The notes beneath the pieces are model-generated. The model did not search any database. It saw nothing but the letters and a program-made list of their open reading frames with translations, and was not told the DNA's origin. 64,000 nucleotides of DNA from Candidatus Pacebacteria bacterium CG_4_9_14_0_2_um_filter_40_15. Its GTDB lineage: Bacteria > Patescibacteriota > Microgenomatia > UBA1400 > PJMF01. The translations under genes were made by a program, and so were the position numbers. Position 1 is the stretch's first letter. Every line of letters begins with the position of its first letter. The stretch lies in NCBI GenBank assembly GCA_002788675.1, contig PFRS01000005.1, forward strand, positions 131,731-195,730, in the 5' to 3' direction. Positions 11,841 to 37,026 of the stretch are shown here, piece after piece.

Positions 11841-12623
11841 TCATGAACTTTTTCTATCAATTGAACTCAATAACTTTTCAAGGTAGGTTTTTACATACTC
11901 AAATAGGCTTCCAAGTTTCTCGCGCTCACCTATTGGTACAAAGGGTCTCAAGTCTTTGATAAACTCATCCTTAGAAAAATCTTTCAACCTAGATATTAAT
12001 CTATCCACTTTAAAAACTTCATCATAATATTTCAACTTATTTTGAATCAAATCCAAATCAAATTTTGCACCAAGCTCTAGTAAGATCCAAAGATCATATA
12101 TATCTCGATGCTTTTCTCTCCTGAGTATTGCTCTGATTTTTTCTGCCAATATTTCGTTCTTACTCAAAGAGTTAACAAAACTCTGCACAATAACAGGGTA
12201 TTCTGATTCAATAATGCTTTTTGTAGGCTCTAAAACATTCTCCCTCATTGAAAAATCTAATTTTACGAAAACCGGATTTTTCAAAGATTGAACATTTGCT
12301 GTTAAAAGATATGTTTTTCCAGTTATGGTTTTTCTTTCCTTAAAGGTAAATGGATATTGATTTTCAATTTTACTGAAAAACTTATTGATTAGTTTTATAA
12401 ATACACCTTCATCAACTTGAACAGTAAAATCTAAATCCTCTGAAAATCTTTGTCCACCATAAAGTAAACGAATAGCAGTACCTCCCTTGAAGTAAATATC
12501 TCTTGAGAAACCTTCTTCATATAATTCTTTCAGAAATGTGATCTGAACAAATTCACGAGCCACAATTGATTCATTAATTTTATACTTTTTGGATAACTGA
12601 TTTAGCTGTGTTTGATTTATCAT
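11841..12623 (-). CDS. abiEii: AbiEii/AbiGii-family nucleotidyltransferase toxin (type IV TA)
   Basis: 'YFKGGTAIRLLYGGQRFSEDLDF' is the hallmark KGGTA nucleotidyltransferase motif of AbiEii/DUF1814. Confidence 0.6.
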   Translation of the reverse strand: MINQTQLNQLSKKYKINESIVAREFVQITFLKELYEEGFSRDIYFKGGTAIRLLYGGQRFSEDLDFTVQVDEGVFIKLINKFFSKIENQYPFTFKERKTITGKTYLLTANVQSLKNPVFVKLDFSMRENVLEPTKSIIESEYPVIVQSFVNSLSKNEILAEKIRAILRREKHRDIYDLWILLELGAKFDLDLIQNKLKYYDEVFKVDRLISRLKDFSKDEFIKDLRPFVPIGEREKLGSLFEYVKTYLEKLLSSIDRKSS

Positions 12624-12660
12624 TTTAGACCCTTAATTTTGGAGTGATAACGACATAAAT

Positions 12661-13308
12661 TTAGCTGGTATAAAAAGTGCAAGGCCATAAATATTTATCC
12701 GCTAATTCCTGAATACTTTTTGACAATTTATCTGGTAGTAGTTTAAAATATTCTTGGAATTTTGCCTTATCAATCGCAGAATAATCCATTTCATCTAAGT
12801 ATTGCTTCGTCTTTAAACCTTTGGCAATCATATACAGCTGATCTAACAAAGCTTTTTCTGGTAGAGCTATTAATGCATCTTCTTCTTTAATATAACCAGT
12901 AAATAAACTCGTACTTATTTGAGAATAGGTATACATTTTTTCTAAAACTTCTTTTTTTTGGGTAGATTTTGTTGTCACTGAGGTGATCTCTACGGGAAAT
13001 TGACTTAAAATTCCATAGTAATTAAGAGCTGTCTCAAATGAGATATATGAAGGCGAATATAAAAATTGAGCAATTTCAAAATCTGAAACTTCTGCATTTC
13101 CCAACAAATATTTGCCTTTTTCAAGAGAAATCAGTATTTTTTCATCAAGAAATCTTTTAATAAGATCCTCAAGTGTTCTTTTCGAGTCAATTTCAAGTAA
13201 GTTTTGAAGATCTTTGGTTAAAAAGGCTTTTTTACCCGAATCATTGATTGCATTTAAATATTTATACGTTGACATATACCACGGATTATACGTGGTTAAG
13301 CATATCAT
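12661..13308 (-). CDS. abiEi: AbiEi-family antitoxin/transcriptional regulator
   Basis: 'YISFETALNYYGILSQFP' matches the conserved AbiEi C-domain motif (Y-x-S-x-E-x-AL-x-x-xG). Lies directly upstream of abiEii. Confidence 0.5.
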   Translation of the reverse strand: MICLTTYNPWYMSTYKYLNAINDSGKKAFLTKDLQNLLEIDSKRTLEDLIKRFLDEKILISLEKGKYLLGNAEVSDFEIAQFLYSPSYISFETALNYYGILSQFPVEITSVTTKSTQKKEVLEKMYTYSQISTSLFTGYIKEEDALIALPEKALLDQLYMIAKGLKTKQYLDEMDYSAIDKAKFQEYFKLLPDKLSKSIQELADKYLWPCTFYTS

Positions 13309-14089
13309 GTCAAGGGTGAATCTTTTCTCAATTAAGATAACACAAAATGCCTAAACACTATTTATTTTCCGTAAGTAAATAATAGAGTAAGTAGGCATTG
13401 GCATGTTGCAAATGACCTTTAATTGATACTTTTGATTGTGTTAGCTCAAACTCGCTCAATTTCCCTTGTAAAAATTTCTTTTGTTTTTTCCTATACTTGC
13501 GTTGCATGTGCCTCAAAGTATCACCTCTCACCAAAACGTGATCATAAAAAATTCTATACCCCACAAACGGCACTCCATCAGTGACATTTTTAATTGTGTT
13601 TTTTTTGGGATGCAAACTCAAGCCCAACTTTCTATTTAAAAATTTCTCAATATCTTTATTTAACTGCTTCAGCTTCTTTTTATCTGGATGAATAATCAAA
13701 AAATCATCCATGTATCGAGCATACCAACGCTGTTTGAGGGTATGTTTTACGTATTGGTCAAGCTCATTTAGATAGATATTGGCAAAAAGTTGACTGGTTA
13801 GGTTTCCTATTGGTAAGCCTTTTCTTTCCCACTCCAATATAGGTGCATTTTCCTGATGGTTATTTTGATCACTGTTATTGAATTCAAAAAGTGAAAGTTG
13901 TTCGGGAATAGTTTTTTTAAAACTATTTTGGTGGATATGACTTGAAATATTCACCATATCTGCTTTTACTGAGTGAGTAACCACAATTCTTCTAAGAAGC
14001 TCGTTGGTTCTTGGGCAAGTTATTGATTTTTGCAGGATTTCTAGCAAAGTATCCCAGTGAATGTTTTGAAAATACTTATGAATATCACA

Positions 14090-14837
14090 GGGTCTTGTGA
14101 CGTTTAGCATACGTTAGTGTGTTAATATGGTTGTAAGATCAATGAAAAATAGATATTGCAATCGATCACGACTTAGTGAGCACAAATTTAGACAACTTTT
14201 ACAATGTTTTTGTGACGATTTTGACACAGTTTTAACAGCAAAAAGTGTTGGAATTTCTCGTGAGCATGTAACCAAATATTTTGGTGCAATTCGTTTTAGA
14301 ATTGTCGAATTAAGTCAGTTAGAGGGTAAATTTTCAGGAGAAGTTGAGGTAGATGAAAGTTACTTTGGAGCAAAAAGAATTCGAGGTAAACGAGGACGTG
14401 GTGCCAGAGGAAAAATACCCGTTGTTGGGGTATTAAAAAGAGGTGGAAAGGTTTACACAAAGGTAGTAAAAAACTGTTCGAGAGAACAAATACTGCCAAT
14501 TTTGAAAGGTAAAATACTTGAGGAATCAACCGTGTTTACAGATGGTTGGAAAAGCTATCATGGATTGATTTATCAAGGATTTCAGCACTATAGAATCTAT
14601 CATTCAAAGAATGAATTTGCTCGAGGAAAAAACCACATTAATGGTATTGAAAGTTTTTGGAGTTTTTGCAAAAGACGTATGGCAAAACAAAATGGTGTGA
14701 GAAAAGATAAATTTCTGCTACACTTAAAGGAATCTGAGTTTAGATGGAATCATAGAAATGAAATGTATAAAGTACTTTTGGACGACTTAAAATTTAACCC
14801 ATTGACGCTCTAAACGTCACAAGACCCTATCACATTG
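14090..14837 (+). mobile_element. IS1595-family insertion sequence (~748 bp) with 18-bp terminal inverted repeats GGGTCTTGTGACGTTTAG and flanking 7-bp direct repeat TATCACA (14083-14089 and 14838-14844)
   Basis: TIRs and TSD read directly at both junctions. The transposase ORF lies inside. Confidence 0.7.
14127..14813 (+). CDS. IS1595-family (ISXO2-like) DDE transposase
   Basis: 'EVDESYFGAKRIRGKRGRGARGKIPVVGVLKRGGKVYTKVV' is the characteristic IS1595 transposase core (EVDE-Y-GG-K ... G-K). Confidence 0.7.
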   Translation: MVVRSMKNRYCNRSRLSEHKFRQLLQCFCDDFDTVLTAKSVGISREHVTKYFGAIRFRIVELSQLEGKFSGEVEVDESYFGAKRIRGKRGRGARGKIPVVGVLKRGGKVYTKVVKNCSREQILPILKGKILEESTVFTDGWKSYHGLIYQGFQHYRIYHSKNEFARGKNHINGIESFWSFCKRRMAKQNGVRKDKFLLHLKESEFRWNHRNEMYKVLLDDLKFNPLTL

Positions 14838-15245
14838 CAACACATAGAGTTCTCTTTCTTTTCCATATATACATCTAGCAGCCATGAGAAATTTTTTGAT
14901 TCTGCTTGCTCCAAAGTGTGTTCCCTTATATTTGCGACAAGCATACGAATCAAAAATAAACTTTTTTTCAAATATTGGCTCAATTTGTGCCACAAGGGAG
15001 TGCTGAATTATCCTATCTTTAAATGCAGGCGCAGAAATTCTCCTTGTTTTGGGCTCAAAAATTGTAAAATTGGTGTAGGGCTGAGGATAATATTCACCAG
15101 ATAAAAGAAGCTGTCTTAACTTTAATATATTGCTCTCAATAAAGTATTCATACTCCGCAACACTAATTCTGTCTCTTTTGCCTTTTCTTGCTTTGTAAAA
15201 TGATTTGAGTAACATCTCAAAACTAGAAATTTTATCAAACATCAT

Positions 15246-21415: not shown

Positions 21416-23350
21416 ATGATTATTCCAGACAATGAAACCGCTGTTGACCTTCTAAATAACCAACCAATAGCTAATAACATCGTTGATTTACTTAAAGACC
21501 ACATGGGTGAGCCAATCACAATTGGCGTTCATGGTGACTGGGGTGCTGGCAAATCAAGTGTTTTGGAAATGATTGAAGCATCTTTTATAAATAACAAAGA
21601 TGGTATTTTATGCCTAAGGTTTGATGGATGGAGGTTTCAAGGTTTCGAAGATGCAAAGATTGCCTTAATTGAAGGGATCGTAACTGGCTTACTGAATGAG
21701 CGCTCGTTATCAGCCAAATCAGTCGAAAAAATAAAAAACCTCTTAAAAAGAGTTGACTGGCTCAAATTAGCGAAACATGGCGGTGGTTTGGCAGTAACTG
21801 CTTTTACTGGTTTACCAAATCCTGATCATATACGGCTAGCCGTTACTGCATTAAAAACATTAGTAAATGACCCAGGTGCAGCTGTAGACAAAGAAAAAAT
21901 AACTGCTGCATTAGAAAGTGCAGATGGAATACTAAGGCCTGCCGAGGAAGTAAAAAGAATACCAGAAGAGATACAAGCGTTCAGAAAAGAGTTTGATGAT
22001 CTACTTGAAGAATCAGGCATTAACCAATTAGTTGTATTGATTGACGATTTAGACAGGTGCCTACCAAAAACTGTGATTGAAACCCTTGAGGCTATACGTC
22101 TTTTTGTATTCACGAGCAGAACAGCTTTTATTGTTGCTGCAGATGAAGGTATGATTGAATACTCAGTCCGAGAACACTTTCCTGATTTGCCAGAGTCTAC
22201 AAATTCGAGAGATTATGCACGTAATTATTTAGAAAAATTAGTTCAAGTTCCTTTCAGGTTACCTAGTCTCGGAGAACTTGAAACAAAAGTGTATGTAAGT
22301 CTCCTTCTAATTGGCTCTGAGTTAGGCGAAGACGATAGTGACTTTTTGAAGTTGGCTGCAGCAGCAAAAGAAGTAATGCGCAAACCTTGGGAAGAATCAT
22401 CGCTGGAAATTAAAACAATAAATGAAACTCTTGGAGAAAAAGCAAAGCAAGTCACTGACATAATTCTTATAAGTGAACAAATTGGACACTCTCTTGCAGG
22501 AGGAACGAATGGTAATCCGAGGCAGATTAAGCGATTCCTAAATACATTACTCTTACGCAAAGAAGCAGCAGAAGCACGTGGGTTTGGCGATGAAATTGCA
22601 TTGCCGATCCTTGCAAAATTGATGCTGGCAGAACGTTTTATCCCGGGACTTTTTGACCGCATCGCACAAACAGCCGCTATTGACCCGACAGGAGTTTGCC
22701 CTGAAATTGCATCTTTGGAAACCTCTATCAAGAATGATTCTGAAAGTGAACAAGAAACATCAACACCTCAGGTAAAAACGTCAACTGAAGATGAAAAAAG
22801 CACACCCGAATGGCTAGATAATCCTGAAATACTTGCCTGGGCAAGAATAGAACCACCTCTAGCAAAGGTAGATTTGAGACCCTATCTTTTCATAGCCAAA
22901 GAAAGAAAAGACTACTTTGCAGGGGCTGCTATATCGCCCAAACTTTCACTCCTTGCTGAAAAACTGATGGGCGGCGAACTTGGAGTTCAAGGACAATCTT
23001 CTCAAGTTTCTTCACTTGCTCCAGAAGAACAAGTAACCCTGTTTGATTTAATTAGAGGAAGAACCATGAGGTCGGGAAACTTCGCTAAAAAACCAGATGG
23101 TATTGAAGGACTTAAATTACTCTCAAAAAATAACACTGCATTAGAAACAAAACTTGTGGATTTTTTAGATACTCTTCCCACCTCAACGCTTGGTCCGTGG
23201 TGTATTGGTGGATGGGATACCACAATTAAAGAAACAGGTAATAAAGCAAGATTAGCAACTCTTGTTCAGGGGTGGGCTGAGGTTAATGATAACAGGGTAC
23301 TCAGTAGTGTGGCAAAACAAGCCGTGAATCTGCCTAAGAAGGGAAAATGA
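21416..23350 (+). CDS. qatA: KAP-family P-loop NTPase (QatA-like)
   Basis: 'GVHGDWGAGKSSVLEMIE' is the KAP NTPase Walker A signature; 644 aa. Confidence 0.6.
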   Translation: MIIPDNETAVDLLNNQPIANNIVDLLKDHMGEPITIGVHGDWGAGKSSVLEMIEASFINNKDGILCLRFDGWRFQGFEDAKIALIEGIVTGLLNERSLSAKSVEKIKNLLKRVDWLKLAKHGGGLAVTAFTGLPNPDHIRLAVTALKTLVNDPGAAVDKEKITAALESADGILRPAEEVKRIPEEIQAFRKEFDDLLEESGINQLVVLIDDLDRCLPKTVIETLEAIRLFVFTSRTAFIVAADEGMIEYSVREHFPDLPESTNSRDYARNYLEKLVQVPFRLPSLGELETKVYVSLLLIGSELGEDDSDFLKLAAAAKEVMRKPWEESSLEIKTINETLGEKAKQVTDIILISEQIGHSLAGGTNGNPRQIKRFLNTLLLRKEAAEARGFGDEIALPILAKLMLAERFIPGLFDRIAQTAAIDPTGVCPEIASLETSIKNDSESEQETSTPQVKTSTEDEKSTPEWLDNPEILAWARIEPPLAKVDLRPYLFIAKERKDYFAGAAISPKLSLLAEKLMGGELGVQGQSSQVSSLAPEEQVTLFDLIRGRTMRSGNFAKKPDGIEGLKLLSKNNTALETKLVDFLDTLPTSTLGPWCIGGWDTTIKETGNKARLATLVQGWAEVNDNRVLSSVAKQAVNLPKKGK

Positions 23351-23351
23351 T

Positions 23352-24221
23352 ATGGGCACATCAAATCCAAATGGAGGATCTAGTGGAAGTAACCCACTTA
23401 TTCCAAGTTGGTTAGTTGATCCTGCAGGAACTAGCACTGAAAACTCAGACACTGCTGAAACTGTAGATAATCCCAATGAAGACTCACAGACTGGCAGCGA
23501 GGAACAAAGCATACCTACTGTTGTGGTAGACCATCAAAGGTATTCTCCTGCAAGAAGCAACTTCACAAGATTTACTAAATCCGGTGGCCGCGACACTAAT
23601 AGCTTGAGGCGGGCTGTGTCTAGTTACGTCCGAAGAAGCTCGGGTGGTGCGAAAAATGCTACCACAAAGATGGGATCTTCGAGAAAGACCGCGTCAAAAT
23701 TGCTGGGTTTCTTACAAGAAGCATCTAATAATGGAATTGAATCTGCTCTTAAATCACTGAACTTAGAAAGCTTATCAGGAAACTCTATGAACGAGTTGTT
23801 CATTGAGTTAACTGACTTTCTTTGCTCTGAGGCTGGCACGGTGGATGCTGGCATTGCTAGAGATGCTTTTATTAAAACTATCGCTGATGTAAATGAAGAG
23901 CAGGTAATAGATGACGGTACTTTGAGTTATGAGCAGGTGCAGACAATTTTTGAACTCTATATTACTCACACGATTGAAGATATGATACTAAATGAAATTG
24001 GAACCAATATAATTTTCCAAACACAGACTTTGGATGATGCTGACCTTGTTCAGGCTCAACTTCACGACTTTATTAGAAATGGCGTCAGTGATGCCCTATC
24101 AAACTCAGGTAACAAAATTAATCAACTTAACCAAAACGAAATTGGAAGTTTTGTTGACAACATTTACGAAAGCACTTTTAATTTACTGTCCGCTCTCTAC
24201 GAGGAAGGTGGTGTTGGATGA
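23352..24221 (+). CDS. qatB: Hypothetical protein in the QatB position
   Basis: 289 aa with no recognisable motif. Start/stop coupled to both neighbours. Confidence 0.35.
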   Translation: MGTSNPNGGSSGSNPLIPSWLVDPAGTSTENSDTAETVDNPNEDSQTGSEEQSIPTVVVDHQRYSPARSNFTRFTKSGGRDTNSLRRAVSSYVRRSSGGAKNATTKMGSSRKTASKLLGFLQEASNNGIESALKSLNLESLSGNSMNELFIELTDFLCSEAGTVDAGIARDAFIKTIADVNEEQVIDDGTLSYEQVQTIFELYITHTIEDMILNEIGTNIIFQTQTLDDADLVQAQLHDFIRNGVSDALSNSGNKINQLNQNEIGSFVDNIYESTFNLLSALYEEGGVG

Positions 24222-25582
24222 TGAATCATGTTATCTATGGTTACTTTGGTTCTGAGGACAAGCCAACTTTAAATCCTGGTGATGGAGTAAAGGTAACACT
24301 ACTAAATCTACTAGGTAGTGATGGATATCTTGGTCATGGTATTGGCAACGTAGTTGATGATCTTGCAAAGCTTGGTGTATTCCCAAGTCAAATCGGAATC
24401 GAATTACTCGTTTTAGCAGCGCATGTACAAGCGGCAGACACAAGGATTTCAAGATCTACAGGGTCTGAGGACTCATGGACTAGAAAAATCAGCGTAGTTG
24501 TTCCAGTTACAAGTGATGTGAATAGATGGGAACGTGTATCAACTATTTTGACTAGAGCCTTAGATTTTTTAACAGGTGATCTGTGGGACATACGATTTAG
24601 AGCAAGTAGTTATAACGAAGCGCTGGTTAAAGAACAAGCTCCTTTGGAAACACAAACCTTCGACTCAATTAGTTTGTTTTCAGGAGGGTTGGACAGTCTA
24701 ATTGGTGCCATAGACTTACTTGAACAAAAAGAAAATACACTTTTTGTAAGCCATGCTAGTGATGGAGCAACAAGCGCAGCGCAATATGAGTTGTTTGATG
24801 GCTTAAAAGAGCAATATGAAAACCTAAATATCGAACGTATAAGACTATGGATGAGTTTCCCGAAAAATTTGGTGGAAGACTCCCAACCAGAGATGACAAT
24901 GAGGAGCAGGTCTTTTCTATTCTTTGCATTGGGTGTGGCTGCAGGCACTGGTTTAGAGCATAAGTTCAAGCTATTTGTGCCAGAAAATGGACTCATTGCG
25001 CTAAATGTTCCTTTAGATCCTTTACGTATGGGATCTCACAGCACCCATACAACGCATCCTTTTTACATGGCAAGATGGAATGAACTTTTGGTCGAATTAG
25101 GGATCGATGGAGAGTTAACTAACCCCTATTGGGATAAGACGAAAGGTGAAATGGTTGGAGCATGCGCCAACAAGCAGTTACTTTCTGACTTAATATCTAC
25201 ATCACTTTCATGCTCGTCACCTTCAAAAGGACGTTGGTCGGGAAAATCAAGTGAACACTGTGGTTATTGTGTGCCCTGTATTATCCGACGAGCCGCTATA
25301 AAAGCCAGCTCACTTAACGATAACACTCCTTACTCTCTCGACAATTTGCAAGGACAGTCACTAAACACTCTGGTTGCAGAAGGCAAACAGATCAGGTCAT
25401 TTCAATTTGCTCTTAGTCGTTTACAAGCAAAACCTGAATTAGCAAAATATCTCATTTACAATGCTGGACCATTGCTCGATCTTTCAAGTACTACAAAATA
25501 TGGTCTTTCTGATGTTTACACAAGAGGACTTTTGGAGGTTTCGAAACTTTTAGAAGGTGTTGAAACCAAACCAATTGAATAA
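24218..25582 (+). CDS. qatC: QueC-like PP-loop ATPase with an N-terminal extension (QatC-like)
   Basis: PP-loop 'LFSGGLDSLIGA' and C-terminal zinc motif 'CGYCVPCIIRRAA', as in QueC. About 140 extra N-terminal residues. Confidence 0.6.
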   Translation: MMNHVIYGYFGSEDKPTLNPGDGVKVTLLNLLGSDGYLGHGIGNVVDDLAKLGVFPSQIGIELLVLAAHVQAADTRISRSTGSEDSWTRKISVVVPVTSDVNRWERVSTILTRALDFLTGDLWDIRFRASSYNEALVKEQAPLETQTFDSISLFSGGLDSLIGAIDLLEQKENTLFVSHASDGATSAAQYELFDGLKEQYENLNIERIRLWMSFPKNLVEDSQPEMTMRSRSFLFFALGVAAGTGLEHKFKLFVPENGLIALNVPLDPLRMGSHSTHTTHPFYMARWNELLVELGIDGELTNPYWDKTKGEMVGACANKQLLSDLISTSLSCSSPSKGRWSGKSSEHCGYCVPCIIRRAAIKASSLNDNTPYSLDNLQGQSLNTLVAEGKQIRSFQFALSRLQAKPELAKYLIYNAGPLLDLSSTTKYGLSDVYTRGLLEVSKLLEGVETKPIE

Positions 25583-25588
25583 ATTAAT

Positions 25589-26320
25589 ATGCAACTCGTT
25601 GATTTTCATTGCCACCTTGATCTGTATCCAGACTTTACTGAAGTAATAAAGAATTACGAACAAAAAAGGATCTATACACTCGCAGTTACTACCACTCCTA
25701 GAGCATGGCTCAAGAATAATGAGCTTACAAAATATTCAAAATATATTCAGGTTGCACTTGGTTATCATCCACAATTAGTAGATGAATCGTGGCGGAAAGA
25801 ACTGGAAATCTGGATAAAACACCTTCCTGAAACAAAATTTGTTGGTGAAGTAGGCATTGATGGCAGCACTAAATTTAAGAATACATTGGTGTTTCAAAAA
25901 CAGGTTTTTAAAGAAATTCTCATACATTGTGCTAATGCAGAAAATAAAATTCTATCTGTTCATAGTTTGAACAGCTCGAGAACTGTTCTAGACTTGATTG
26001 AGGAATACTTGCCTCAGAGTAAAGGTCGTGTAGTTTTACACTGGTTCACGGGAACTATTCCAGAGGCAAAAAAAGCTTTAAAACTTGGTTGCTACTTTTC
26101 TATCAACCCTCGAATGCTAAATACAAAAAAAGGGCAAGAGCTTCTGAAAACATTACCAATTGATAAGTTATTAACAGAAACAGACGGACCCTTTGTCAAG
26201 ATCAATATCTCCGATACAATTCGTGGACTAGCAATAGCAAAACATAATACGGTTGATTTTATCAGTAAGCAGATTTCAAATAATTTTCACACTTTAATAA
26301 ATACACAACTACTAGAGTAA
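25589..26320 (+). CDS. qatD: TatD-family metal-dependent nuclease (QatD-like)
   Basis: 'VDFHCHLDLY', 'GEVGIDGS' and 'TETDGPF' are TatD motifs. Confidence 0.6.
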   Translation: MQLVDFHCHLDLYPDFTEVIKNYEQKRIYTLAVTTTPRAWLKNNELTKYSKYIQVALGYHPQLVDESWRKELEIWIKHLPETKFVGEVGIDGSTKFKNTLVFQKQVFKEILIHCANAENKILSVHSLNSSRTVLDLIEEYLPQSKGRVVLHWFTGTIPEAKKALKLGCYFSINPRMLNTKKGQELLKTLPIDKLLTETDGPFVKINISDTIRGLAIAKHNTVDFISKQISNNFHTLINTQLLE

Positions 26321-26347
26321 TCAAAAAAATACTTCTATAATACACAT

Positions 26348-26554
26348 ATGGGATCACAACAAAAATTTGGCCAAAACCTAAGACTAGCTCGAAAAAAAGC
26401 TGATCTTACTCAACAACAAGTTGCAGAAAAAGCCAAACTACACACCAACTACTACGCACGTATTGAAAGAGGGGAAGAAAATCCCTCCTATGAAGTGCTA
26501 GAAAAAATTGTCAAAGCCTTGAAGATAAAGTCCTCAGAGGTATTTCCGTTTTAA
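26348..26554 (+). CDS. XRE-family helix-turn-helix transcriptional regulator
   Basis: 'LRLARKKADLTQQQVAEKAKLHTNYYARIERGEENPSYEVLEKIVKAL' is a Cro/C1-type HTH. Confidence 0.6.
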   Translation: MGSQQKFGQNLRLARKKADLTQQQVAEKAKLHTNYYARIERGEENPSYEVLEKIVKALKIKSSEVFPF

Positions 26555-26794: not shown

Positions 26795-27235
26795 CTAGAT
26801 AAATCGCCCTAGTTTTAAGAAATGAAACATCTTTTGTGCATGTCCATCGCCCACAGTCCTTCTCATCAACTCTCGACTATTGGCTTGAGATAGTATGTTC
26901 AGACTGCCTTCCCACAAGATATCCCTATCAATAATCGCTAACTTCCTGTGATGATTGTTACTAGTCACCAGAACCTGGACACCAACTCTCTCAAAATACT
27001 CAATCACTTCCTCTGCCTGCAACTGCATTGCTGGCATATGCTTGTTGGGATCTCTTGTAATAACATAAACTTTTACACCATCAGCTATTAGCTTTTCAAA
27101 AACAGGGCACAGTGTAAGTGTTCTGTCATTCGTAATAAATGGACTTTCAATCACGACTTCACGCTTTGCGTGAAGTAAATCCTGCCCAAATTTCTTGTAA
27201 AAAGTAGTTTCATCAAATAATGAGGTACTAAACAT
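26795..27235 (-). CDS. Single-HKD phospholipase-D-family nuclease (Nuc-like)
   Basis: 'NHHRKLAIIDRD' gives the HxK(x)4D motif; 146 aa, the size of Nuc-type endonucleases. Confidence 0.55.
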   Translation of the reverse strand: MFSTSLFDETTFYKKFGQDLLHAKREVVIESPFITNDRTLTLCPVFEKLIADGVKVYVITRDPNKHMPAMQLQAEEVIEYFERVGVQVLVTSNNHHRKLAIIDRDILWEGSLNILSQANSRELMRRTVGDGHAQKMFHFLKLGRFI

Positions 27236-27258
27236 CTTTCGTCTCCTTTTCTATATTA

Positions 27259-27329
27259 TCACAATATATAAGACGTAGTTCCTCGAGTTCAGCTAAAAAT
27301 GGTTCAAACTGTTGAGCCTTAGGGTCACA
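27259..27329 (+). repeat. 71-bp intergenic direct repeat, copy 1 (TCACAATATATAAGACGTAGTTCCTCGAGTTCAGCTAAAAATGGTTCAAACTGTTGAGCCTTAGGGTCACA)
   Basis: Near-identical copies at 28601-28671 and 29866-29936; degenerate copy at 30584-30623. Confidence 0.85.
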
Positions 27330-27335
27330 ACGCAG

Positions 27336-27365
27336 AAAAAGATCCATTCATGGATCTTTTTTTGT
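27336..27365 (+). terminator. Rho-independent terminator-like hairpin (agatccat-tc-atggatct + T7) immediately after repeat copy 1
   Basis: Perfect 8-bp stem followed by 'ttttttt'. Confidence 0.5.
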
Positions 27366-27550
27366 GTTTTGATTCTACAGAGGATGGCGATCCGCCGAAT
27401 GAAATGAGGCTGGGTTCGCGCACATCAAGTGAGCGAAGCGAACATGAGAAGTACTCTTGGGGTGATTCCGCGTGGGGTCACATTATGTAATTTTGACACC
27501 ATAAATATTCAAGTCAAAAATCTATATACTTTTTTGCTACAATATCTTAT

Positions 27551-28495
27551 ATGCACGAAATTCAGGTTGATTGTCCCACTCCCCATGACATCCTTAACAC
27601 AAAAGAGGCACGTGATCAGCTCGTCTCTCAACTGAAAGCAACCTTAACACTTGTTGACTATGGTGATGGCCAAACATTTTATAAATCAAAAGATCAAAAT
27701 GTGTCTCAGATAGTCATTGATAGTGTCTTTACTGAAGAAGAACGTCAAAAAAAAATTGCCGAGGCAAGTAATGACATTAAAGGAAGACCGGTTAGATATT
27801 ATAGAGAAATTTCTATAAATCACTTATTAAACATTATTAACAATGCCGAAGAATCTCCCAACGATTATCATAAGGGCGTTCCAAATCCAAGCGAAAACCA
27901 GTTGCGTGCGTTATGTAGTTTCTTACTCTCGATTCGAGATAAAAAAATGAATATAGATAAGCCTATAGCAAATATACTCACATTAGCATTTCCAAATGCT
28001 AACCAGAGTGAAATTATGAATCTGCTTAAGACTGATGACTTCGATTGGAAAAGTGCACTCTCATTCATTCAAAAAAATCTTTCTGAGAAAGAATTGAAAC
28101 TTCTACATTCGGTTGCTTTTTCTGGAAGAGAACATATTCTTCCCTTTTCCCCATTTTTTTCTATATGTCCTGGAGGACCTAGATTTTATCCACCAACACA
28201 TTCTCAAGTAATAATTGAAATGGTTATACCAGATTCTGAAGTATCTATTAACGAAAGTAATAAAACACTTGCTGAAAGAGAAGCATTAGTTACAAAAGTA
28301 AAAAGATCATACATATCTAAAATTATTTTTAGTGAAAAAGCCTTCATTGAACAGATAATTTTAAACCCCACAACTCCTATTGGAGAGTTTGTTACAAAAA
28401 AAGCTGATGAAGGTGTTGATATAAGTAGAGCTCATTCAATGTGGTTTAGAGAAGTGCCGATTGGGGAAACAATTCCCGCTTCATTAAGTCAGTAG
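27551..28495 (+). CDS. Hypothetical protein (cassette gene)
   Basis: 314-aa ORF flanked by repeat copies 1 and 2; no recognisable motif. Confidence 0.35.
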   Translation: MHEIQVDCPTPHDILNTKEARDQLVSQLKATLTLVDYGDGQTFYKSKDQNVSQIVIDSVFTEEERQKKIAEASNDIKGRPVRYYREISINHLLNIINNAEESPNDYHKGVPNPSENQLRALCSFLLSIRDKKMNIDKPIANILTLAFPNANQSEIMNLLKTDDFDWKSALSFIQKNLSEKELKLLHSVAFSGREHILPFSPFFSICPGGPRFYPPTHSQVIIEMVIPDSEVSINESNKTLAEREALVTKVKRSYISKIIFSEKAFIEQIILNPTTPIGEFVTKKADEGVDISRAHSMWFREVPIGETIPASLSQ

Positions 28496-28600
28496 TACAT
28501 ACCCCAGACTTTTCTTTATCTACCAATATTCCTCAGTTCAGTAGCCCTATATCTTGAAACAAAGAAATACTAAACATTATCCATCTCCATTTCTATCTTA

Positions 28601-28671
28601 TCTAAATATATAAGACGTAGTTCCTCAAGTTGAGCTAAAAATGGTTCAAACTGTTGAGCCTTGGGGTCACA
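28601..28671 (+). repeat. 71-bp intergenic direct repeat, copy 2
   Basis: About 90% identical to copy 1. Confidence 0.85.
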
Positions 28672-28731
28672 GCGATTTTTCCTCGAGAGTTTTTATACCC
28701 TAAGTGCAACATTGAACCTTCTTTCTTTTTT

Positions 28732-28761
28732 GGCGCGATTAGTGGCGCGATTTTGGCGCGA
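28732..28761 (+). promoter_or_regulatory. Three tandem GGCGCGA(T/C)T repeats immediately upstream of the fic start; candidate operator
   Basis: 'tggcgcgattagtggcgcgattttggcgcgactc' followed by 'tataat' at 28770-28775 and the ATG at 28782. Confidence 0.3.
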
Positions 28762-28781
28762 CTCTGTGCTATAATAAAAAC

Positions 28782-29840
28782 ATGTTTAAACCAAACTTTA
28801 CAATCACGCCAGAAATCAATAACAAAATTGCCGAAATCGAAAAACTGAAATCACTTTTCGATCAAGCAAATATTCTTCCTGAGTTAGCTATAGAATTACG
28901 ATTTCGAGCAACTGTTGAATCTGTTCATAGTTCCACATCTATTGAGGGAAACCCACTAAATGAGCAAGAAGTTCAGAATGTACTAGAAGGAAATACTGTT
29001 TCTGCACCTGAGTATGCAATACAAGAAGTCCTTAACTACAAAAATGCAATGAACTGGCTCAATCAAGGGAAAATCTCAACAGAAGGATTGAGTGAAAAGG
29101 ACATCCAAAAGCTTCATAGCTTAGTAATGGAAAAACTATTGCAACCAGAAAAGGTTGGTTCATTCCGCCCTGGAGATATATATGTTGTTGATCAAATTAA
29201 AAATAAAGAAATAATTCAGTATCAGGGTCCTAATGCAAAAGAGTTAAAACAACTAGTAGCTTCTTTTTTAAAATGGATTAGCATCCAAAAAAGTGAATCA
29301 AAACTTCATCCGGTACTACTTGCGGGTTTAATCCACTACATTTTTGTTTCAATTCATCCATTCTCTGACGGAAACGGAAGAACTACTAGACTTCTCACCT
29401 ATCAATATCTCAAATCTGTTAATTACGACTTCAATGATTCTCTATCACTAGACAGTTACTATCTACAAAATCGAGAAAGATACTATGAAGCACTCAGCAG
29501 AGGTAGAACCTTTGATGATCGCATGTTCTCTGACATCACACCCTTTTTAGAATTTTTTGTAGATGGCTTTTTGAACTCAGTAAAAAGTCTCACAAAATAT
29601 GTACAAATTGGAAAAGTATTAGATAGTTCAAAAAAACCGGTAAGACTTAATCAGGAGGAGCTAGCAATACTAGACTATGTCTATCAGTTTAAGTCTATTT
29701 CACTTGAAGATGCAGTAATTGCGACAGGAGCAACCAGGAGAACCGTTCAAAGAAGACTAAGCAATTTAGTTGACAAAATGATTCTTGAAGTCAAAGGTAA
29801 AGGGCCTGCTACAGAGTATCACCTAGCATCAAGAAAATAG
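28782..29840 (+). CDS. Fic/Doc-family protein (AMPylation/adenylyltransferase fold)
   Basis: Canonical Fic motif 'HPFSDGNGRTTR'. Confidence 0.75.
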   Translation: MFKPNFTITPEINNKIAEIEKLKSLFDQANILPELAIELRFRATVESVHSSTSIEGNPLNEQEVQNVLEGNTVSAPEYAIQEVLNYKNAMNWLNQGKISTEGLSEKDIQKLHSLVMEKLLQPEKVGSFRPGDIYVVDQIKNKEIIQYQGPNAKELKQLVASFLKWISIQKSESKLHPVLLAGLIHYIFVSIHPFSDGNGRTTRLLTYQYLKSVNYDFNDSLSLDSYYLQNRERYYEALSRGRTFDDRMFSDITPFLEFFVDGFLNSVKSLTKYVQIGKVLDSSKKPVRLNQEELAILDYVYQFKSISLEDAVIATGATRRTVQRRLSNLVDKMILEVKGKGPATEYHLASRK

Positions 29841-29865
29841 GTTTTAACTAATTTCTCATTGGTCG

Positions 29866-29936
29866 TCACAATATATAAGACGTAGTTCCTCGAGTTCAGC
29901 TAAAAATGGTTCAAACTGTTGAGCCTTAGGGTCACA
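29866..29936 (+). repeat. 71-bp intergenic direct repeat, copy 3
   Basis: Identical to copy 1 except at its ends. Confidence 0.85.
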
Positions 29937-29946
29937 TTCAATACAA

Positions 29947-30396
29947 TTAAGTTAATTTGTCCAATTCATTTGCTAACCTCATTTTCAACTTCTCAAGTCT
30001 TTCTTTTGTAGGTCGAGCAGTTTCAGCTGCCAAAACTTCTTTACCCAAAGTCCATATCGGCATTTTGGGATCAGGATCTGTTCCATATCTAGGAATTAGA
30101 TGCCAATGCACGTGATTGTCTGTATTTCCTAGTAATTCATAGTTAAGCTTGATTGGCTTAAATGCCTTGCACACTGCTTCAGCAACTACCGCCATTTCAT
30201 GAAGAAATACATCTCTAGTTTGAGTATCTAAATCATGAAGCTCTTTAATATGTAGCTTTCCCAAAAAAATCGTATACCCTTCAAATAATTGGAAATCACA
30301 TAATACAACGTAACCCGTTTCCAATTCCTTAACAAAATATGGATTCTCGTTATTTTTAATGTCAGAAATTCTTTGACAAATAAAACAATGATTCAT
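29947..30396 (-). CDS. HIT-family (histidine triad) nucleotide hydrolase/transferase
   Basis: 'NHVHWHLIPRY' is the histidine-triad motif. Confidence 0.7.
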   Translation of the reverse strand: MNHCFICQRISDIKNNENPYFVKELETGYVVLCDFQLFEGYTIFLGKLHIKELHDLDTQTRDVFLHEMAVVAEAVCKAFKPIKLNYELLGNTDNHVHWHLIPRYGTDPDPKMPIWTLGKEVLAAETARPTKERLEKLKMRLANELDKLT

Positions 30397-30583
30397 AGGT
30401 ATTTTCCTCTCTATTTTTTACTATTTCTTGATTTCGAATAATTGGAAAGAAGTAAATGCTCCTCCTGTTTTTTTGACCAAAAGTTACTCATAAACATCTT
30501 CCTCCATTTCTAGCATACTAACAGTACCATTAAAATAGATAAAGCCAAGCTCTTTTAGGCGAGCATACGTCTTGAGGATACTT

Positions 30584-30623
30584 GCAAAAAATAGTTCCAA
30601 CTGAGGATTTGTGGGCTCACAAC
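30584..30623 (+). repeat. Degenerate partial copy of the 71-bp repeat (gcaaaaaatagttccaactgaggatttgtgggctcacaac)
   Basis: Aligns with 'gctaaaaatggttcaaactgttgagccttagggtcacaac' with ~10 mismatches. Confidence 0.5.
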
Positions 30624-30701
30624 AAAAGAGAACCCCGAACCACATTCAATTAAAATGGTATACTGCTTTGTATACAGATGTGCTATTCCATTTAAAAAGG
30701 A

Positions 30702-36528: not shown

Positions 36529-37026
36529 TTATAAATATCTTGCATCATATGCCCAATGAAGCAATGCTTGTCGCTGACGAGGTCGACAACTGCTGTCTCC
36601 CTTGGTGCAATTTTTTTGTACTTGAGCCACATGCCGACTCATCGCCTTCCACCGCTTAATCTGTCGATCATCATCTGTTGATCTTCTACCCATGTAGTAC
36701 CGACAGTACCATTGAAACCAGCCTCTTGGATCATTAGGATGAATCCAGCCTTTTTCCTGCCAAACTAAAAGACTTTGGCTAGCATCAACTTTGAAGTAAT
36801 TTAACTTGGGATCTTTCTTAGATGAAAGCTTTGCATGAGTAAACCAATCGCTGGGAAATTCAGCTCGGCTGTCGTTCATGTATTTGCCACCAAAAATGCC
36901 CAGTACAAGCATTTGCTGAGGTGTTAATTCTGGTAAGAAGTCAGGCTCAAAGTTCGCTCCTTTATCCTCAGTTAAATAGTACACATAGTTACTTTGGAAC
37001 CTGTCATGTACCGTTATTTTTTTCAT
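36529..37026 (-). CDS. Hypothetical conserved protein (W/R-rich 'GWFQWYCRYYMGRR' motif)
   Basis: 165-aa ORF; motif not assignable to a family from memory. Confidence 0.35.
   Translation of the reverse strand: MKKITVHDRFQSNYVYYLTEDKGANFEPDFLPELTPQQMLVLGIFGGKYMNDSRAEFPSDWFTHAKLSSKKDPKLNYFKVDASQSLLVWQEKGWIHPNDPRGWFQWYCRYYMGRRSTDDDRQIKRWKAMSRHVAQVQKNCTKGDSSCRPRQRQALLHWAYDARYL

Follow-up and report, generated by a model that had tools for sequence, protein, structure and literature searches.

The window analysed here, a 64,000-nucleotide (nt) stretch of contig PFRS01000005.1 (positions 131,731 to 195,730) from Candidatus Pacebacteria bacterium CG_4_9_14_0_2_um_filter_40_15, contains a row of genes punctuated by co-oriented copies of a 71-nt repeat. 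We consider it likely that these repeats represent the P-type half-sites and crossover core of a family of large serine recombinases (LSRs) targeting tRNA-Glu, and that the gene cassettes between them were stacked by tandem accretion in the manner of cis-mobilisable elements (CIMEs) and of staphylococcal cassette chromosome (SCC) islands. A preliminary description of the locus had proposed attC-like sites of an integron or a shufflon. Its idea of a recombination-site array appears right in substance, in that the repeats behave as site-specific junctions delimiting gene cassettes, but the attC/integron type finds no support, there being neither a fold nor an IntI and the genes being of mixed orientation; of a shufflon there is no sign, all sites being direct.

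The repeats and their core

Three copies of the 71-nt repeat lie on the + strand, at 27259-27329, 28601-28671 and 29866-29936. Copy 1 matches copy 3 throughout (71/71), and copy 2 matches either of them at 66/71 positions (93%), which agrees with the co-orientation and the roughly 90-100% identity first reported. A scan of the 64-kb window with a 60-nt core pattern recovered three matches, with 0, 3 and 0 mismatches, and none in 100 shuffles. The likeness of copies 1 and 2 runs on to 123 nt (105/123 identical) because a decayed PLD gene (- strand), reduced to its ribosome-binding region and ~14 initial codons, adjoins copy 2. Beside this b-type repeat there is a second, c-type repeat at 30484-30621, set apart from it by a 21-nt in-frame indel and with relatives of 69-95% identity in three related loci (L001, L012 and L016); the degenerate fourth copy previously placed at 30584-30623 is a real homologue but belongs to this longer c-type unit. 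The spacing of the 71-mers (1342 and 1265 nt, with genes in between) is not that of a CRISPR array, as was already recognised.

Conservation across the repeat sits in three DNA blocks, namely the left block ATATATAAGA, AAATGGTTCAAACTG and the terminal 8-mer, and is not codon-patterned. All four copies terminate in the 8-nt core GG[G/C]TCACA; the GTCACA described for both ends of the repeat is a property of copy 3 only, the left end otherwise varying (TCACAA or TCTAAA). The sequence GGSTCACA occurs 7 times in the window as against 2.3 expected, with 5 occurrences clustered on the + strand at 27322-30621. A fifth junction, overlooked before, is formed by an 18-nt fragment of the 3' end of tRNA-Glu(CUC) at 27464-27481. 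The junctions and their flanks are as follows:

27259-27321, + strand: b-type P arm of repeat copy 1, followed by its core GGGTCACA at 27322-27329; proposed attR, with homology to L005 stopping at 27328
27464-27482, + strand: displaced tRNA-Glu 3' fragment GATTCCGCGTGGGGTCAC, core at 27475-27482; 18/18 nt identical to the genome's own tRNA-Glu(CUC), T-loop motif degenerate
28552-28600, - strand: 5' remnant of a PLD gene left of copy 2, recognised by its likeness to copy 1 and the PLD start
28601-28663, + strand: body of repeat copy 2, core at 28664-28671
28672-28718, + strand: flank F1 (ATTTTTCCTCGAGAG...ACATTGAACC), found also directly after the intact tRNA-Glu of L002
29866-29928, + strand: body of repeat copy 3, core at 29929-29936
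30484-30613, + strand: body of copy 4 (c type), core GGCTCACA at 30614-30621; the last junction of the array

tRNA-Glu and the adjoining serine recombinase

The repeat core is the 3' end of tRNA-Glu: the tRNA-Glu(UUC) of L002 ends ...CCCCGTGGGGTCA followed by CA, with F1 directly after it. No tRNA or tmRNA gene lies within the window, and the genome's own tRNA-Glu turned up only on walking outside it. Walking left from the window's first complete open reading frame (ORF) led into the sequence L017, whose position 12019 corresponds to window position 1 in reverse orientation, and which carries TspO, tRNA-Glu(CUC), a core (GGGGTCACC), an LSR gene and a type IV coupling protein (T4CP) gene that continues into window position 1:

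L017 14969-15043, window about -3023..-2949: tRNA-Glu(CUC), in the walk left of the window
L017 13452-15032, window about -3012..-1432, opposite strand: LSR of 526 aa with Resolvase (PF00239), Recombinase (PF07508) and Zn_ribbon (PF13408) domains

The LSR ORF crosses the core, its last 18 codons lying inside tRNA-Glu(CUC), and the gene stands at the end of an element adjoining the att core, the arrangement by which LSR sites are recognised. The earlier statement that the window has no integrase and that a recombinase, if any, would be found elsewhere proved right in substance, the LSR lying ~1.4-3.0 kb beyond the left edge and adjoining tRNA-Glu. Within the window no recombinase was found among the scanned ORFs (most ORFs of 1-39.5 kb), and neither these nor the Pfam lists of 14 loci include a tyrosine recombinase or IntI. 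The locus also has the features of an Islander-type island (PMC4383910), with an intact tRNA at one end and blocks of 3' identity at the other in direct orientation; the 8-9-nt tRNA identity block recurs at 27322, 28664, 29929 and 30614.

More than 1000 homologues of this LSR were found at E<=1e-20. Among the ~45 closest, almost every one ends in '...GDPTGNRTP...', reading across GGTGACCCC into tRNA-Glu, and in about 40 homologues the ORF likewise crosses the core; the tails diverge right after GDP, according to the sequence joined there. Remoter members (P0044, P0050-P0053, P0055, P0057-P0058, P0061-P0063) end instead in '...GV.DG.RTRDLLLH...' and seem to read into the 3' end of another tRNA. 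Targeting of a tRNA 3' end with the site inside the recombinase ORF may hence be a family-wide trait. A 63-aa ORF overlaps the LSR start (L017 13268-13459, about 1.25-1.45 kb left of window position 1) and is a candidate recombination directionality factor or regulator.

In L020 (10001-11620), the LSR homologue P0031 runs at its 3' end into a non-tRNA, P-type arm, with the core as the point of junction. Its neighbours are T4CP and Replic_Relax genes on one side and uncharacterised genes, including one for a 1101-aa protein, on the other. L020 may be an attP form or a rearranged element, but the housekeeping genes found at one end of the contig speak against a simple circle. As an attP form it was set aside: apart from the GTTC offset described below its likeness to the repeat is weak. 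The frame of the repeat stops after 12 codons in L020.

Junctions in related loci

We catalogued every GG[GC]TCAC[AC] in nine independent related loci (L001, L002, L004-L006, L012-L014 and L016). Practically all of these core occurrences are junctions, and every junction is co-oriented with tRNA-Glu. The left bodies are few, comprising tRNA-Glu, the b type, the c type and some others, and the right flanks vary. tRNA-Glu, with UUC or CUC anticodon, heads the arrays of L002, L006, L014/L015 and L016, and arrays begin at a tRNA-Glu gene wherever the contig includes one. The same flank can follow different bodies: F1 stands after tRNA-Glu (L002), after b-bodies (window, L004, L014, L016), after c-bodies (L001, L012) and after another body (L006), and in P0008 the flank of the window's copy 4 is joined to a b-body. 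L004 has a PLD/c-body remnant.

Homology between genomes ends at the cores, to within 3 nt (L005 at 27328, L014 at 29938, the c-body of L012 at 30624 and that of L016 at 30622). The comparison of gene content between genomes that had been suggested accordingly finds cassette content differing, with breakpoints at the repeat's end. The cassette F1-Fic-b-body-core is 91% identical in L012 and 69% in L014, and has different left and right neighbours in all three genomes. Within the window's own population there is no turnover, 24 of 24 contigs read keeping the same arrangement.

The repeat itself is confined to this type of locus, and the genome-wide spread in random intergenic contexts that the preliminary description named as speaking against it was not encountered. 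A scan of species-representative genomes with a 20-nt core matched two metagenome-assembled genomes (MAGs), at one locus each, and a profile of the repeat's - strand reading retrieved 18 protein clusters among 5.8e9, all of them short. Viral contigs gave no match to the repeat core. A metagenome DNA scan missed the window's own pattern-bearing Joint Genome Institute (JGI) contigs, so that a lack of matches in it is weak evidence of rarity.

The GTTC offset and a proposed assignment of attachment arms

In 6 of 6 tRNA-Glu arms, 11 nt separate the motif GTTC from the core; in about 30 non-tRNA arms, that of the L020 LSR junction among them, the distance is 16 nt. It is 16 nt even in 4 of 5 bodies otherwise unrelated to the repeat, for which the probability by chance is about 1e-9. 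In serine-integrase attB half-sites the motif bound by the zinc-ribbon domain is 5 bp nearer the crossover than in attP (Rutherford et al., PMC3783163). Offsets of 16 versus 11 nt, read by this rule, which we applied to the left arms only, would make the repeat a P-type arm and the T-arm of the tRNA a B-type arm. The spacing parallels that in the A118/LI integrase att sites (PMC3783163), where the motif occupies positions 16-24 versus 11-19; unlike there, the motif is clear here in the left arms only, and the host-side arm is a tRNA T-arm. For the right arms there are weak candidates only: TCGAAG at +21, the box CCTC[GA]AGAG, which is conserved in F1 10-15 nt past the core (+10-15), and ACATTGAACC farther out. 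The crossover centre can be placed only roughly, within GGGTCA/CA. The junction by the HIT gene of L012 (4984-5060) has a tRNA-like look (TTTGGTTCAAATCCCACACTCTTTGGCTCACC) with GTTC at 16 nt, and ARAGORN calls no tRNA there; P arms may derive from, or mimic, tRNA T-arms.

A probable ICE-like element and its right end

The gene content between the tRNA core and the core of copy 1 points to a mobile element. The window opens inside the T4CP gene, after which come genes for Replic_Relax, ArdC-like, AbiEii/Ei, an IS1595-split reverse transcriptase (RT), type IV secretion system (T4SS) pilin/TrbL, PrgI, VirB4-like and M23 proteins, QatABCD and an XRE/79-aa/PLD module:

1-27321: body of the element, totalling ~30.3 kb from the tRNA core to the core at 27322, with its left end outside the window (Pfam, PADLOC and walk)
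21416-26320, + strand: QatABCD defence system (PADLOC; QatA 2e-271, QatB 1e-100, QatC 8e-185, QatD 6e-96)
26348-26554, + strand: XRE-family helix-turn-helix (HTH) gene, 'control protein'-like (Pfam HTH_3 2e-15); the module is found also in L001 and L005
26551-26790, - strand: 79-aa small protein (called as 69-aa) downstream of PLD, with homologues in L001 (74 aa) and L005 (65 aa)
26795-27235, - strand: single-HKD PLD-family nuclease, the element's last gene (PLDc_2 7e-12), syntenic in L001 and L005
27329-27378, + strand: terminator after the core of copy 1, an 18-pair stem and T-run, with no + strand gene upstream
27380-27452: GC-rich stretch of 73 nt (55% vs 38%) between terminator and tRNA fragment

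Because tRNA-Glu(CUC) adjoins an LSR whose ORF crosses the core, this ~30.3-kb T4SS/QatABCD/PLD segment is most likely an integrative and conjugative element (ICE)-like element integrated in tRNA-Glu(CUC), with copy 1 as its right end, attR. The segment between the tRNA core and 27322 yielded no canonical relaxase, and in this phylum T4SS-like clusters may belong to the chromosome. The related MAG L001 has the same M23/defence/XRE/PLD layout, in common with the window at least for the M23 peptidase gene and the defence/XRE/PLD module, and ends in c-body, core and F1, that is P-core-B'. QatABCD lies between the M23 peptidase and the XRE/PLD module, near the right end of the element. In its position L001 carries an OLD/GajA/AriA-like ATPase, which indicates a second variable slot inside the element.

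The strong terminator hairpin noticed after copy 1 is real (27329-27368, 18 pairs and a T-run, + strand). It follows the core at 27322, where there is no gene that it could serve, and is most readily explained as tRNA-Glu's own terminator, part of the B' flank and displaced by the insertion. For the GC-rich stretch that follows, neither an Rfam family nor a homologue in the other loci turned up; its fold is unexceptional, with z -1.2 on the + strand, and -2.7 on the - strand only with the terminator included.

The PLD gene sits directly downstream (- strand) of copy 1, and the 79-aa protein next to it has no Pfam or PADLOC match. The start of the XRE gene (26339-26366, ATGGGATCACAACAAAA) resembles the core of copy 4 with its flank (30606-30630, GTGGGCTCACAACAAAA); standing directly after QatD, this likeness could be chance or could mark the left edge of the XRE/PLD module as another old junction. 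Most arrays are without an XRE gene, and the XRE protein was set aside for that reason as a candidate factor binding the repeat. Elsewhere in the element, the RT gene is split by an IS1595-family insertion (RVT_1 C-part 13358-14110, - strand; DDE_Tnp_IS1595 14127-14813, + strand; RT N-part 14817-15245, - strand), and an AbiEii nucleotidyltransferase toxin (1e-31) with a probable AbiEi upstream (11841-13308) forms a further defence or toxin-antitoxin module.

Cassettes and their cargo

To the right of the proposed attR, the cores divide the array into three further cassettes:

27483-28671: cassette 1, with the 314-aa uncharacterised gene at 27551-28495 (+ strand), the PLD 5' remnant (- strand), copy 2 and core
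28672-29936: cassette 2, with F1, the operator-like sequence TGGCGCGAT three times (28730-28762), the SoFic-type Fic gene at 28782-29840 (+ strand), copy 3 and core
29937-30621: cassette 3, with the HIT-family gene at 29947-30396 (- strand), c-type body and core

The genes initially named from their motifs are borne out by Pfam and PADLOC (PLDc_2, the 314-aa ORF, a SoFic-type Fic and HIT), and their orientations across the array are -, +, +, -. Each of the three cassettes has one cargo gene between cores and no integration or transfer genes, and they stand directly after the proposed attR of the ICE-like element. In this they match CIMEs and pseudo-SCC units, which are bordered by att-type sites and sit in tandem with a recombinase-bearing element at one target. 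That one Fic unit recurs in different arrays lends indirect support to cis-mobilisation, or to excision along with a neighbouring element. Across the arrays the cargo is largely defence-type, with SoFic (several), PDC-S04, PDC-M48A/B, PD-Lambda-2/cII/beta, PDC-S01, Qat and an OLD/GajA-like ATPase; HIT, HD, His_Phos, MFS and more make up the others.

Upstream of Fic (28730-28775) there are three direct repeats TGGCGCGA(T/C)T, spaced 11-12 nt, and then a -10 box, TGCTATAAT. At the equivalent spot L014 has TGGCAC(A/G)ATTA twice, in L014/L015 just downstream of tRNA-Glu. The C-terminal part of Fic gives a weak HTH_Mga match (residues 292-330), and the upstream repeats are perhaps an operator for autoregulation by this HTH-like stretch. 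Beyond the array, a conserved 165-176-aa protein (...FEPDF.PELTP.QML.LG.FGGKYM...) is encoded at window 36529-37026 and at L006 7295-7825, a few kb past the last junction in both; the window copy has no Pfam match.

A model of tandem accretion at tRNA-Glu

We envisage a clade of Patescibacteria in which LSRs of this family would insert elements at the very 3' end of tRNA-Glu genes. For the element of the window, attL would consist of tRNA, core and LSR 3' end, ~3 kb left of the window, and attR of copy 1, its core and the displaced terminator. The segment 27330-30621 would be an accumulation of older remnants without integrase at this hotspot, built of units that comprise a flank, one cargo gene, a P arm and a core. 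Earlier elements would have decayed to right-end remnants that keep just the cargo gene, P arm and core, a decay suggested by the PLD 5' remnant by copy 2, the PLD/c-body remnant of L004 and the 18-nt tRNA fragment. Later arrivals at the site, together with pairing of attL with one or another of several attR-type sites, would have stacked the units, carried them along or left them behind. Such use of alternative attR sites by the LSR, perhaps with a directionality factor, would account for the shuffled cassette combinations between genomes. The sequence itself shows the repeats and cores, the tRNA-Glu/LSR junction, the common orientation with tRNA-Glu, the breakpoints at the cores, the 11 versus 16 nt offset and the cargo; that this LSR acts on the sites, the order of events and any activity at the present day are what we infer.

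Several observations weigh against this model. Canonical LSRs join only attP with attB, or attL with attR when aided by a directionality factor, and a row of attR-like sites would require added steps such as decay, pseudo-sites or alternative attR use. The right half-sites (P' and B') have no clear dyad symmetry or common motif, at ~66 nt the conserved portion of the repeat exceeds what a half-site requires, and the L020 junction is only weakly similar to the repeat. No attP circle and no empty attB were found for this genome, all 24 population contigs being alike, and most arrays elsewhere have no LSR within 10 kb. Moreover, copies 1 and 3 are 100% identical, which could reflect recent duplication or gene conversion instead of separate integrations.

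Alternative explanations

The same arm and core would also serve a true cassette system run by the tRNA-Glu serine integrase, parallel to integrons and mechanistically unrelated to them. The enzyme would come in trans from the conjugative-type element, which would also carry cassettes between cells, and single-gene cassettes would circularise and enter the array at the tRNA-Glu core; individual defence or toxin genes bearing the ~66-nt P arm and core would thereby be excised, exchanged and stacked downstream of tRNA-Glu, making the array a functioning device for gene capture and not a collection of decayed elements. We regard such an active platform, and the traffic in tagged genes that it implies, as possible though rather unlikely. 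In its favour are the uniform build of the units (~0.7-1.3 kb, mostly one gene, the same P arm and core at the end), the Fic cassette in three contexts, the LSR-less arrays directly at tRNA-Glu and the precision of the boundaries at the cores. However, the left flanks have no common P'-type half-site, so that a circle would bear an attR-like and not an attP-like site; the PLD remnants and tRNA fragment indicate that larger elements decayed; and neither cassette circles nor turnover within the population were found in the 24 contigs.

Homologous recombination alone, in which repeat, core and F1 would be short anchors for RecA-dependent exchange after DNA uptake, is improbable. Repeats of 66-123 nt at 90-100% identity could support it, identical copies 1 and 3 fit gene conversion, and most arrays lack an adjoining recombinase. 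Yet tRNA-Glu has just ~8-10 nt in common with the repeat and swaps occur exactly there, otherwise dissimilar bodies keep GTTC at -16, and the breakpoints fall at the core, which is also crossed by the LSR ORFs, and are not spread along the repeat.

The repeat might alternatively be a duplicated expression module, a portable promoter or leader with an upstream ORF of 39-54 aa (such as a regulator or antitoxin) duplicated together with toxin-like genes, in which case the pattern of junctions would be secondary. The - strand frame is open in all copies and is the sole open frame in 16 unique copies, with synonymous-looking changes (Leu CTA/TTG and CTC/TTA swaps) and the in-frame b/c indel; the repeat stands directly upstream of PLD, Fic-B, OmdA and HIT, and gene callers predict the peptide. 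The ORFs of this kind in the window are:

27228-27347, - strand: 39-aa ORF over copy 1, in phase with the LSR ORF
30484-30645, - strand: 53-aa ORF in the c-type body

Against this, most copies, including copies 2 and 3 of the window, have no in-frame start codon, and the ratio of non-synonymous to synonymous change (pN/pS) is 0.53 in this frame, not clearly below the 0.60-0.65 of the other frames. The called small ORFs have mutually unrelated N-termini because they cross the core, the L020 frame ends early, several copies face the 3' end of a convergent gene, and a promoter scan gave no signal above shuffles. With 18 short proteins of unrelated N-termini and no clear pN/pS signal, we rejected the small ORF as a real gene, and we hold the module explanation to be slightly less probable still than RecA exchange. 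Where it passes the core, the LSR frame is in phase with the open frame of the repeat, which could account for a start-less open frame; the tail is unconserved in L020 and we do not rely on this. That the repeat ORF is an alternative C-terminal tail of the LSR in the excised state was rejected too, as no long protein with such a tail is in the database and the frame is closed in L020. If, as we favour, the repeats are attachment arms, their conserved part of ~66 nt exceeds the need of a half-site and suggests a second role, and they may also act as leader or promoter for the leftward gene (PLD, Fic-B, OmdA or HIT).

The integron or CALIN (cluster of attC sites lacking an integrase) initially proposed, with attC sites folded as single strands for an IntI-type tyrosine recombinase, is very improbable. 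It shares with the locus a like architecture, with a conserved site at one cassette end, a short junction core and no recombinase inside the array. The attC-like folding on both strands that was put forward as a check gave nothing better than shuffles (z +0.8 to -1.0); in DNA folds of 81-nt windows on both strands the b copies gave z = +0.25 to -0.77 and copy 4 -0.27 to -1.02. There is no imperfect palindrome on either strand and there are no inverse R''/R' cores. The only small stem, the 7-bp hairpin GGTTCAA/TTGAGCC, was discarded as a conserved feature, its 3' arm varying uncompensated among 16 unique copies. The mixed gene orientation, and the presence of cassettes with their own promoters (Fic having its own -10 box and operator-like repeats), speak against it further, as does the finding of an LSR, and of no IntI, at the tRNA junction.

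A dispersed repeat of the repetitive extragenic palindromic (REP) or miniature inverted-repeat transposable element (MITE) kind, or a structured RNA or terminator, would be short, intergenic and highly conserved, and one copy does have a terminator after it, but this explanation is next to negligible, given 3 (+2) copies in 64 kb all within 3.4 kb, one locus per MAG in two MAGs, no terminal inverted repeats around the repeats and no target-site duplications, no Rfam family in the window at gathering thresholds (sensitive mode over 27200-27600 gave chance terminator hits only), no fold signal and just the 18 protein clusters.

Comparison with known systems

Several known systems come close to the proposed accretion. 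SCC composite islands are made by the CcrAB and CcrC large serine recombinases and consist of tandem elements and pseudo-SCC units (10.1101/336396). They resemble the present locus in the LSR enzyme, the 3' end of a conserved housekeeping gene as target, the tandem stacking between short direct-repeat site sequences, the occurrence of recombinase-less units beside recombinase-bearing ones, and the adaptive or defence cargo. They differ in that the target here is tRNA-Glu and not rlmH, the host belongs to the Patescibacteria, the recombinase unit is a T4SS-encoding ICE-like element, the remnants have single genes, the site comprises a ~66-nt P arm and an 8-nt core in place of a ~15-nt direct repeat, and the LSR ORF crosses the site.

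In ICE/CIME accretion of the ICESt1/ICESt3 type, integration is followed by decay to a CIME that keeps its att sites and by new integration at the site, yielding tandem, cis-mobilisable arrangements (PMC5704250). We propose the same three-step logic here; the described cases, however, involve tyrosine integrases and one or two large CIMEs, whereas here there would be a serine integrase and up to five mini-units, and the attP x attB rule of serine integrases makes re-use of hybrid sites less straightforward. In the tycheposon arrays at Prochlorococcus tRNA genes, successive integrations push older elements inward (10.1101/2020.12.28.424599). Common to both are tRNA-anchored variable islands built up by successive integrations, streamlined genomes, partial tRNAs, degenerate elements and defence cargo; the tycheposons mostly rely on tyrosine recombinases and have partial tRNAs (~40 nt) as repeats, whereas here the tRNA-derived part is ~8-18 nt and the conserved repeat would be element-derived.

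With integrons the locus shares a row of mostly single-gene cassettes, one conserved site at the same end, a recombinase outside the array and variable content, but it lacks a folded attC, a tyrosine IntI and an attI/Pc, and its genes are of mixed orientation. The intP/intX of myxophage Mx8 and the integrase of the fusellovirus SSV1 are tyrosine integrases with attP inside the integrase gene, and integration alters the 3' end of the ORF. Here too integration would change the 3' end of the recombinase ORF; the differences are that the enzyme is a serine recombinase, that only its last ~18 codons are exchanged and that the alternative tail is unconserved (L020).

Implications

In the literature on mobile elements and on the dynamics of defence islands in Patescibacteria, the Candidate Phyla Radiation (CPR), we found nothing comparable, the field being poorly described. 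The principle of accretion is already known from SCC and CIMEs; what would be new here, and would extend it, is a serine integrase acting at a tRNA gene. The locus further provides an in-silico example of the 5-bp offset between attP and attB motifs over dozens of natural sites. It offers a testable system that pairs an LSR family of more than 1000 members with the tRNA-Glu 3' end as candidate natural attB and with candidate attP arms. For genome engineering, it could be a source of additional site-specific integrases whose sites are short and defined. For the Patescibacteria themselves, the array would constitute a hotspot at which defence genes (Qat, SoFic, PDC-type, PLD and OLD-like) swap as small units.

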